Below, one piece after another: positions 258 to 4,336 of a stretch of 4,336 nucleotides of DNA. Each line of letters begins with the position of its first letter. Within the stretch, counting starts at the first letter, position 1. This DNA comes from a virus (taxonomy: Duplodnaviria; Heunggongvirae; Uroviricota; Caudoviricetes): the IMG/VR virus record IMGVR_UViG_2711768011_000009. One strand, given 5' to 3'. Both the position numbers and the translations under genes were made by a program. The notes beneath the pieces were generated by a model. The model ran no database searches. It was not told where the DNA came from and was given only the letters and a program-made list of their open reading frames with translations.

Positions 258-668
258 TTAGTGCGGAAATATTTGTGTAGTGTTCTGTATGTTCTCAGTA
301 AAGAGTAATGAATTATCAAAGGTATAGTAATACCTTTTGTTTTCGTGGATATTTGTAATCCATCTGAAAACCCCTGCTGTAGCAAGATTTTTCCTGTATT
401 CGTAAAATGATAACTCTCCTGATTTGAATCCTTTTAAGGTGGCTTCTATAAGGCATTTATTTTTTGAAAATCTTACATTTACAACCTTACCCTGTCCTTT
501 TATTAAAACCGTATTATCGTTTTCAAGAACAAGATGAATATTCTCTGTGGCTAAATAGTAAATGTAATGTGAGACATTGTGACGTTTTAGTTCAGAATAA
601 AACCAGTGATAGTTTAAATTATTTCGCACTTTATCGAATATTTGTTTAAAAATGGCAACCTGAGCCAT
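258..668 (-). CDS. hypothetical protein (~136 aa), AT-rich accessory gene; possibly a DUF1398 (YbcV/YdfO-like) prophage protein
   Basis: Minus-strand ORF with TAA stop at 258-260. The ORF track starts it at 683 (141 aa), but the second in-frame ATG at 666-668 is preceded by GGAAGG with ~7-nt spacing, so I prefer 258..668. Hand counts of two 60-nt slices give ~27-32% GC, against ~55% in a Nu1 slice. Same orientation as the small gene immediately upstream, 57 bp away. Family assignment is from recollection of genes found at this position in lambdoid prophages and is not verified. Confidence 0.6.
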
Positions 669-725
669 TGTAGTACCTTCCATGTGATATGAGGGGGCGT
701 AGTCTGCACGATTATCTAAATTGCT

Positions 726-959
726 TCAATCTGGTCTAACCTGTTTTCTGAGCAATTCAGTAATGTCACTCTTTTCTTTGTTTGCTTCAGGCGAAACTCT
801 TTTTTCTGAGCACAGTCTCCGGCGGCAGGCTTCAATGACCCAGGCTGAGAAATTCCCGGACCCTTTTTGAACAAGAGCGATGTTAATTTGTTCAATCATT
901 TGGTTAGGAAAGCGGATGTTGCGGGTTGTTGTTCTGCGGGTTCTGTTCTTCGTTGACAT
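726..959 (-). CDS. small Arc/MetJ-type ribbon-helix-helix-like DNA-binding protein (77 aa); resembles the YlcI/DUF3950-type ORF found next to cos in lambdoid phages
   Basis: Minus-strand ORF, ATG at 957-959, TGA at 726-728. The protein has a basic N-terminal tail (MSTKNRTRRTTTR), then NIRFP (beta-strand like Arc NLRWP), helix NQMIEQINIALVQKG, a G-S-G-N-F-S turn, and helix AWVIEACRRRL. This is the beta-helix-turn-helix layout of RHH repressors, and it contains the conserved NFS motif I associate with DUF3950. Weak AGGG ribosome-binding site ~8 nt upstream. Confidence 0.65.
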   Translation of the reverse strand: MSTKNRTRRTTTRNIRFPNQMIEQINIALVQKGSGNFSAWVIEACRRRLCSEKRVSPEANKEKSDITELLRKQVRPD

Positions 960-1347: not shown

Positions 1348-1867
1348 ATGGAAGTCAACAAAAAGCAGCTGGCTGACATTTTCGGTGCGAGTATCCGTAC
1401 CATTCAGAACTGGCAGGAACAGGGAATGCCCGTTCTGCGAGGCGGTGGCAAGGGTAATGAGGTGCTTTATGACTCTGCCGCCGTTATAAGATGGTATGCC
1501 GAAAGGGATGCTGAAATTGAGAACGAAAAGCTGCGCCGGGAAGTTGAAGAACTGCGGCAGGCCAGCGAGACAGATCTCCAGCCAGGGACTATTGAGTACG
1601 AACGCCATCGACTTACGCGTGCGCAGGCCGACGCACAGGAGCTGAAAAATGCCAGAGACTCCGCTGAAGTGGTGGAAACCGCATTCTGTACTTTCGTGCT
1701 GTCGCGGATCGCAGGTGAAATTGCCAGTATTCTCGACGGGATCCCCCTGTCGGTGCAGCGGCGTTTTCCGGAACTGGAAAACCGACATGTTGATTTCCTG
1801 AAACGGGATATCATCAAAGCCATGAACAAAGCAGCCGCGCTGGATGAACTGATACCGGGGTTGCTGA

Positions 1868-1893
<26 letters not shown>
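1348..1893 (+). CDS. Nu1: terminase small subunit gpNu1 (181 aa)
   Basis: ORF translation MEVNKKQLADIFGASIRTIQNWQEQGMPVLRGGGKGNEV... matches lambda gpNu1 over its full length with a few substitutions. The N-terminal winged helix-turn-helix region that binds the cosB R-elements is present. Sits immediately downstream of cosB, and its 3' end overlaps the start of A by 26 nt, as in lambda. Confidence 0.95.

Positions 1894-4336
<2,443 letters not shown>

Follow-up and report, generated by a model that had tools for sequence, protein, structure and literature searches.

Gene content and setting of the locus

The window, that is, the whole 4,336-nt stretch of DNA analysed here, comprises the right end, cos and the left end of a lambda-like prophage. 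Two minus-strand genes lie in it between the plus-strand lysis and packaging genes. The features used below are the following (window positions):

258-668, minus strand: ydfO/ybcV-family gene (DUF1398), 136 aa; the RefSeq start is the second ATG, at 668
669-725, minus strand: intergenic spacer of 57 bp, holding the -10-like hexamer of the DUF1398 promoter-like site
711-738, minus strand: sigma-70 promoter-like site, TAGACC - 16 nt - GATAAT, 9/12 consensus matches
726-959, minus strand: ynfO/ylcI-family gene, 77 aa; ATG at 959, TGA stop at 726-728
729-745: PdhR-box-like palindrome, reading AACAGGTTAGACCAGAT on the minus strand
747-796: Qin-type junction segment of 50 bp, from blastn block boundaries
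798-959, minus strand: conserved N-terminal domain of the small gene, codons 1-54, from alignment and blastn
1140-1200 (about): lambda-type cos region, from alignment to HK630 and 2H10
1348-1893, plus strand: Nu1, terminase small subunit (Pfam Phage_Nu1, E 2.4e-101)

The original prediction had placed a 77-aa and a 136-aa minus-strand gene, 57 bp apart, between the lysis side and cos. Both genes were found as described, cos lies beyond the small gene as expected, and the lysis cassette lies directly left of the window in near-identical prophages and phages. Nu1 and the 77-aa gene are divergent, and Nu1 is followed by gpA and then by gpW. The drop in base composition was likewise recovered, with a GC content of 0.305-0.375 in segments across 201-800 vs 0.51-0.58 in the packaging genes (segments across 1401-3100). 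With this deviating GC content and an orientation opposed to the late operon, the two genes have the features of the AT-rich, moron-type accessory insert that had been proposed.

Three side observations concern the remainder of the window. The gpA ORF (terminase large subunit) looks interrupted in the ORF list because of two N runs, at 3162-3289 and 3452-3655. The cohesive-end positions 1157-1168 read GGGCGGAAGGCG where lambda has GGGCGGCGACCT (5 of 12 bases differ); among the loci retrieved, this variant was present in 13 and the lambda form in 111, with some contigs entered under two locus ids. Just upstream of the Nu1 start codon, a 26-nt inverted repeat (1267-1323; 85% complementary, 5-nt loop) gave only spurious microRNA-family matches in Rfam, and the Rfam scan of positions 1-1400 returned nothing meaningful.

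The small gene belongs to the ynfO/ylcI family

The 77-aa protein was assigned to DUF3950 by profile search against Pfam (PF13132; E 2e-20, 72.8 bits, cut-off 25), the check that the original prediction had proposed for it, and to YlcI_YnfO_N by NCBIfam (NF041551; 35.2 bits, cut-off 30). It also matches PHROG 949 (E 6e-33), and 75 of its 77 residues are identical in K-12 YnfO. Nei-Gojobori comparison of codons 1-54 with the Qin, DLP12, HK630 and Stx-phage copies (pairs with dS >0.1; dS up to 0.84) gave dN/dS values of 0.12-0.28. The gene is protein-coding, well beyond chance, and under purifying selection.

Conservation is concentrated in the N-terminal domain. In the alignment, residues 1-50 are nearly invariant across YlcI/YnfO variants and the tails are divergent; the domain is the only part common to all variants, the C-terminal tails being unrelated because they are encoded by whichever DNA follows the junction. 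The conserved domain is very basic (pI 11.7) and has the pattern of a basic arm, N-I-R-F-P, a helix (19-31), a G-S-G-N turn and a second helix (37-50). An hhalign comparison with an Arc/Mnt profile was in register over YlcI residues 11-34 (E 0.0023, probability 13%), weak PHROG matches were obtained to an Arc-like repressor (E 0.088) and to HicB-like proteins (E 0.012-0.28), and the YlcI profile had no match among PDB sequences. From these weak profile signals and the secondary-structure pattern, YlcI/YnfO is plausibly an Arc-like ribbon-helix-helix (RHH) DNA binder. The earlier Arc-like label is plausible, with weak statistical support (hhalign 13%, PHROG E 0.01-0.3).

Full-text literature search found no function given to DUF3950, ynfO or ylcI. 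Transcription of ylcI has been reported in K-12, as part of a convergent ybcW-ylcI excludon (PMC12288877).

Lambda and HK630 each carry a conserved 64-aa YlcI-like ORF beside cos, which is absent from the features of J02459 and of the HK630 record:

J02459.1 48139-48303, minus strand: YlcI-like ORF of lambda, unannotated
HK630 (locus L001) 2735-2929: YlcI-like ORF of HK630, unannotated

The dN/dS of this ORF family is about 0.1-0.3. Near-identical YlcI sequences also appear in records assigned to Staphylococcus aureus, Bacillus, Klebsiella, a spider and a Campylobacter phage, and many error-laden homologues lie on ENA contigs of ~3.5 kb, a pattern that would fit the 3.6-kb lambda control DNA of nanopore sequencing.

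The larger gene encodes a DUF1398 protein

The suggestion that the 136-aa protein belongs to DUF1398 was borne out by Pfam (PF07166; E 3.3e-43, 147 bits, cut-off 22), with profile positions 1-119 of 119 matching residues 8-126 of the 136-aa product, or 13-131 of the 141-aa ORF that results from a more upstream ATG at 683 (258-683). The ATG at 668 has GGAAGG 7-8 nt upstream and the ATG at 683 is without a Shine-Dalgarno-like sequence. Against the Qin, DLP12, HK630 and Stx-phage copies, dN/dS (Nei-Gojobori) was 0.12-0.34, and this gene too is protein-coding, well beyond chance, and under purifying selection.

The YdfO fold of PDB 2HH8 was found for the 136-aa protein, which is 76% identical to YdfO/2HH8. 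The model contains an internal duplication, (alpha-alpha-beta-beta-beta) x2, and the duplicated sequence motif can be seen by eye in distant Bacteroidota and Streptococcus suis DUF1398 sequences too. No structural neighbour of the fold was found except 2HH8, the family alignment has no invariant polar or catalytic residue, and no signal peptide or membrane segment was detected (maximum 19-residue hydropathy, 0.39). The pI is 9.1-9.75 in prophage copies vs 4.5-7 in distant members, and this variation in charge across the family argues against a conserved nucleic-acid-binding role. Taken together, the lack of an invariant polar residue, a membrane segment and a structural neighbour, and the non-conserved charge, favour a soluble binding protein over an enzyme, a toxin or a virion part, as judged from the model and the family alignment.

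Neither protein matched a toxin family in Pfam, NCBIfam or PADLOC, in agreement with the earlier statement that the 136-aa product has no toxin or enzyme motif. In PADLOC-DB v2, the best match of the DUF1398 protein was Csx23 (E 0.025, 12.6 bits), and the small protein had none. E. coli DUF1398 alleles are diverged (65-100% identity). Per-site variability is somewhat higher in helix 71-82; it is modest and spread along the protein, with no sharply hypervariable surface.

Published data are available for several copies. CRISPRi mapping found lambdap78, the DUF1398 gene of lambda, to be non-essential for plaque formation (PMC10695390). In K-12, ydfO is strongly induced by imidazolium cation shock (PMC4077768), and YdfO overexpression is reported there, with reference to earlier work, to raise oxidative-stress resistance. 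No paper assigning a function to DUF1398, ydfO or ybcV was found by full-text search, as the original prediction had supposed. We consider a lysogen-expressed, host-regulated accessory factor to be the best inference for this protein.

Database labels describe DUF1398 proteins as 'head protein' (PHROG 413 and several RefSeq phage records) or 'putative envelope protein' (lambdap78). These look like propagated errors, because the protein is soluble, antisense to the late operon and non-essential in lambda.

Junction types and mosaic boundaries

Comparison with lambda and DLP12 by blastn resolved two homology blocks, 89-742/746, which contains the DUF1398 gene with its upstream region, and 797-1347, which contains the YlcI N-terminal domain and cos. 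The 50-bp junction segment between them (747-796) stands in place of the ~610-bp ybcW/p79 segment of lambda, HK630 and DLP12, and the 14 nt CTKTTTTCTGAGCA occur as a direct repeat on either side of it, at 741-754 and 799-812. The repeat suggests that recombination between such short sequences could convert the Qin-type arrangement into the ybcW-type and vice versa. In a third type of junction, YlcI is 64 aa long and the gap measures 101 bp. In the Stx-phage copy, homology upstream of the ylcI ATG decays within ~45 bp, and alignment of lambda-type with Stx-type contexts upstream of ylcI revealed no common operator or repeat.

The region is abundant. In a set of 5426 complete E. coli genomes, the 1.35-kb region was covered at >=80% in 2629, the Qin-type junction was present in 2177 (~40%) and the ybcW-type (lambda/DLP12) junction in 1433, so that the predicted recurrence in lambdoid prophages was found. 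The identical allele pair occurs in phages PhiR49_1, Kati, Chlobot and ev099, and identical alleles occur in at least 80 IMG/VR contigs.

The two genes are separate modules

Among the matches listed, YlcI and DUF1398 were adjacent in 79 of 80 YlcI-anchored viral loci, which are of the lambda type (Nu1); viral-contig scans with single proteins retrieved only near-identical copies and are thus uninformative on diversity. The wider comparison separates the genes in both directions. In lambda, HK630 and DLP12, an opposite-strand gene (ybcW/lambdap79) lies between them. Across the phage collection, YlcI was found in 155 records vs 43 for DUF1398. The 54-codon YlcI domain abuts two unrelated packaging modules, Nu1-type and HNH-terS-terL. 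The latter is exemplified by Stx2a_WGPS8 (locus L199), which has no DUF1398 within 3.5 kb; its ylcI start lies 41 bp from a divergent HNH start codon (3459-3501), and this gap implies a ylcI promoter located within the HNH gene. In another locus (L209), YlcI adjoins Nu1 and DUF1398 is absent. One of the 80 YlcI-anchored viral loci (L048), with a YlcI 98.7% identical, had no DUF1398 match in its 4 kb downstream of YlcI.

DUF1398 in turn occurs without YlcI. K-12 ycgX is a lone DUF1398 gene adjoining bluR. A genome-wide search with the distant subgroup of the alignment yielded 38 distant DUF1398 loci (Kluyvera, Pseudocitrobacter, Klebsiella, Raoultella, Salmonella diarizonae, Flavobacteriia and Streptococcus suis), none with a YlcI relative within 5 kb (no tblastn match below E 2.3). 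The neighbours there are unrelated chromosomal housekeeping genes, resembling by eye a diguanylate cyclase, umuDC, ttcA, truA, pdxH and glyQ. Three distant members that were scanned (Epilithonimonas, S. suis and Klebsiella) are genuine Pfam DUF1398 proteins (E 1e-23 to 1e-38).

These results show that the two genes are separate mosaic modules, made neighbours by the mosaic history of the phages. The constant association is that of YlcI with the start of the packaging module, and DUF1398 is an optional neighbour, whose module includes ~80 bp of upstream sequence. The suggested layout of a toxin-antitoxin or autoregulated module fails here, as it is only within one subgroup of prophages that the genes form a unit; the proposed check for conservation as a unit gave YlcI without DUF1398, DUF1398 without YlcI, and an interposed gene in lambda and DLP12.

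Apparent natural fusions of the two proteins (P0014, 233 aa, and P0010, both metagenomic) were rejected as evidence for coupling. The two ORFs share one reading frame, which the 57-bp spacer preserves, and the fusions show Trp precisely where the TGA stop lies; they are therefore an artefact of gene calling with code 4.

The spacer, a promoter-like site and a PdhR-box-like palindrome

The sigma-70 promoter-like site upstream of the DUF1398 gene overlaps the 3' end of the small gene and is a candidate from consensus match alone, the region giving 4 such sites vs 2.5 expected by chance. Short inverted repeats at 716-725 and 751-760 flank this promoter-like region. Its -35 region coincides with AACAGGTTAGACCAGAT, which matches the PdhR box of K-12 Qin, AACAGGTCAGACCAGAT, except at one spacer base, and also resembles the box in the ybcV/ybcW spacer. 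By gSELEX, PdhR sites have been placed in the ybcV/ybcW spacer and at ynfO/ydfO of K-12, and ybcV mRNA is 10-fold lower in a pdhR mutant (PMC7660256); these data refer to the K-12 copies, not to the allele of this window. In the window and in both K-12 copies alike, the box is found about 60-77 bp ahead of the DUF1398 start codon (for K-12, older published coordinates were converted to the current record), and this constant distance in three copies indicates that it belongs to the DUF1398 module.

No terminator-like site was predicted between the genes on the minus strand, which makes read-through from ynfO likely in the tight arrangement. The two genes may therefore be co-transcribed, and hence to some extent functionally coupled, in this particular arrangement.

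Interpretation

By sequence, the genes are the counterparts of K-12 ynfO and ydfO, already known and with no function assigned. In the reading that we favour, with good confidence, they are ynfO-ydfO-type genes in an accessory slot, separate mosaic modules that would supply a regulator and a host-controlled DUF1398 factor. Lysis genes stand on one side of this accessory ('moron') slot of a lambda-like E. coli prophage and cos on the other. YnfO would bind DNA as a small basic Arc-like RHH dimer and may act as a transcriptional repressor in the lysogen. For the DUF1398 product we propose a soluble binding protein of pseudo-twofold alpha/beta fold, without enzymatic activity. Most transcription of its gene would start at a promoter belonging to the gene itself and controlled by PdhR, the pyruvate sensor of the host, with read-through from ynfO probably incidental. 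The protein could serve as a lysogenic-conversion or stress-tolerance factor, dispensable for lytic growth.

A more specific version of the same picture is possible but, on balance, unlikely. Here YlcI would be an Arc-like junction regulator, kept at the lysis/packaging junction whatever the terminase type and controlling, e.g., transcription in the lysogen that crosses cos or runs antisense to the late operon, and DUF1398 would be a PdhR-controlled effector altering lysogen physiology or phage susceptibility. We regard as improbable a single autoregulated operon in which YnfO represses or activates the adjacent DUF1398 promoter. The adjacency in 79 of 80 YlcI-anchored viral loci (among the matches listed) and in ~40% of E. 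coli genomes would fit it, as would the overlap of the ynfO 3' end with the DUF1398 promoter-like region and the short inverted repeats around that region. Many phages, however, keep YlcI without DUF1398, the DUF1398 upstream block and its PdhR box are retained whether or not ylcI is directly upstream, and no operator is common to the different contexts upstream of ylcI.

An anti-phage function (superinfection exclusion, defence or counter-defence) encoded in this moron slot between lysis genes and cos seems quite improbable. In its favour, the slot has the location and base composition usual for prophage morons, E. coli harbours several diverged DUF1398 alleles with helix 71-82 somewhat more variable, and one phage-resistant APEC mutant had lost ydfO but carried many other changes too. 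Against it, PADLOC is negative, the variability is modest and spread along the protein with dN/dS well below 1, distant members of the family are ordinary genes of the chromosome that lie outside prophages, and no phenotype has been reported. Very unlikely is a type II toxin-antitoxin system with the RHH protein as antitoxin and autorepressor and DUF1398 as toxin. The layout of a small, basic, DNA-binding-like gene directly upstream of a larger co-oriented one, 57 bp away, and the weak PHROG matches to a HicB-like antitoxin family (E 0.012-0.28) speak for it. Against this, the pairing is unconserved in either direction, lambda and DLP12 interpose an opposite-strand gene, neither a toxin or defence family match nor a toxin active site was found, lone chromosomal DUF1398 genes occur in many species, YdfO overexpression is described as protective, not toxic, in PMC4077768 with reference to earlier work, and the apparent fusion protein is a TGA-read-as-Trp artefact. 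A virion or envelope component is scarcely credible, since the database labels (PHROG 413, lambdap78) are all that favours it; the gene is oriented against the late operon, its product has neither a signal peptide nor a membrane segment (maximum 19-residue hydropathy, 0.39), lambda forms plaques without it (PMC10695390), and homologues occur in non-phage chromosomal contexts.

For annotation, listing the pair among toxin-antitoxin or defence candidates is not warranted, and calling DUF1398 a 'head protein' or 'envelope protein' is unsupported. What is conserved as a unit beside cos is the 54-codon YlcI domain; its role is a small but real gap in what is known of lambda, and J02459 has no feature for its gene. 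As a discovery the pair is of little importance, comprising annotated K-12 y-genes with a solved structure and many thousands of copies.

Comparison with known systems

Lambda bor and lom, like the genes of the window, are opposite-strand or autonomously expressed accessories of the late region with deviating composition, and they are also dispensable for lytic growth, as is lambda p78. They differ in being envelope proteins with known phenotypes, whereas the proteins of the window are predicted to be cytoplasmic.

P22 Arc and Mnt resemble YlcI in having a ~50-aa domain with a basic N-terminal arm, and in Arc the sequence N-L-R-W-P, a helix and G-R-S are in register with N-I-R-F-P of YlcI (common motif N-[IL]-R-[FW]-P). 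Like ynfO, they are small genes within a lambdoid late region. Their sequence relationship to YlcI is not significant, however, and unlike P22 the window has no adjacent antirepressor gene.

The lambda and DLP12 arrangement (ylcI-ybcW/lambdap79-ybcV/lambdap78) occupies the same slot between the lysis genes and cos. Its DUF1398 gene and upstream block are homologous to those of the window at 83% DNA identity, and its ylcI N-terminal domain and cos at 94-95%. It differs in having ~610 bp with ybcW/p79 where the window has 50 bp, and its lambda-type YlcI is 64 aa long with an unrelated tail.

The closest counterpart is the K-12 Qin pair, ynfO (b4533) and ydfO (b1549), with the same families in the same order beside the Nu1-type nohA. 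It shares with the window the 77- and 136-aa lengths, the 57-bp spacer and its sequence, the TGA stop and the position of the PdhR box. Its DUF1398 protein, YdfO, is 76% identical to the allele of the window, and Qin is a decayed cryptic prophage, whereas the pair in the window lies in an apparently intact packaging module.
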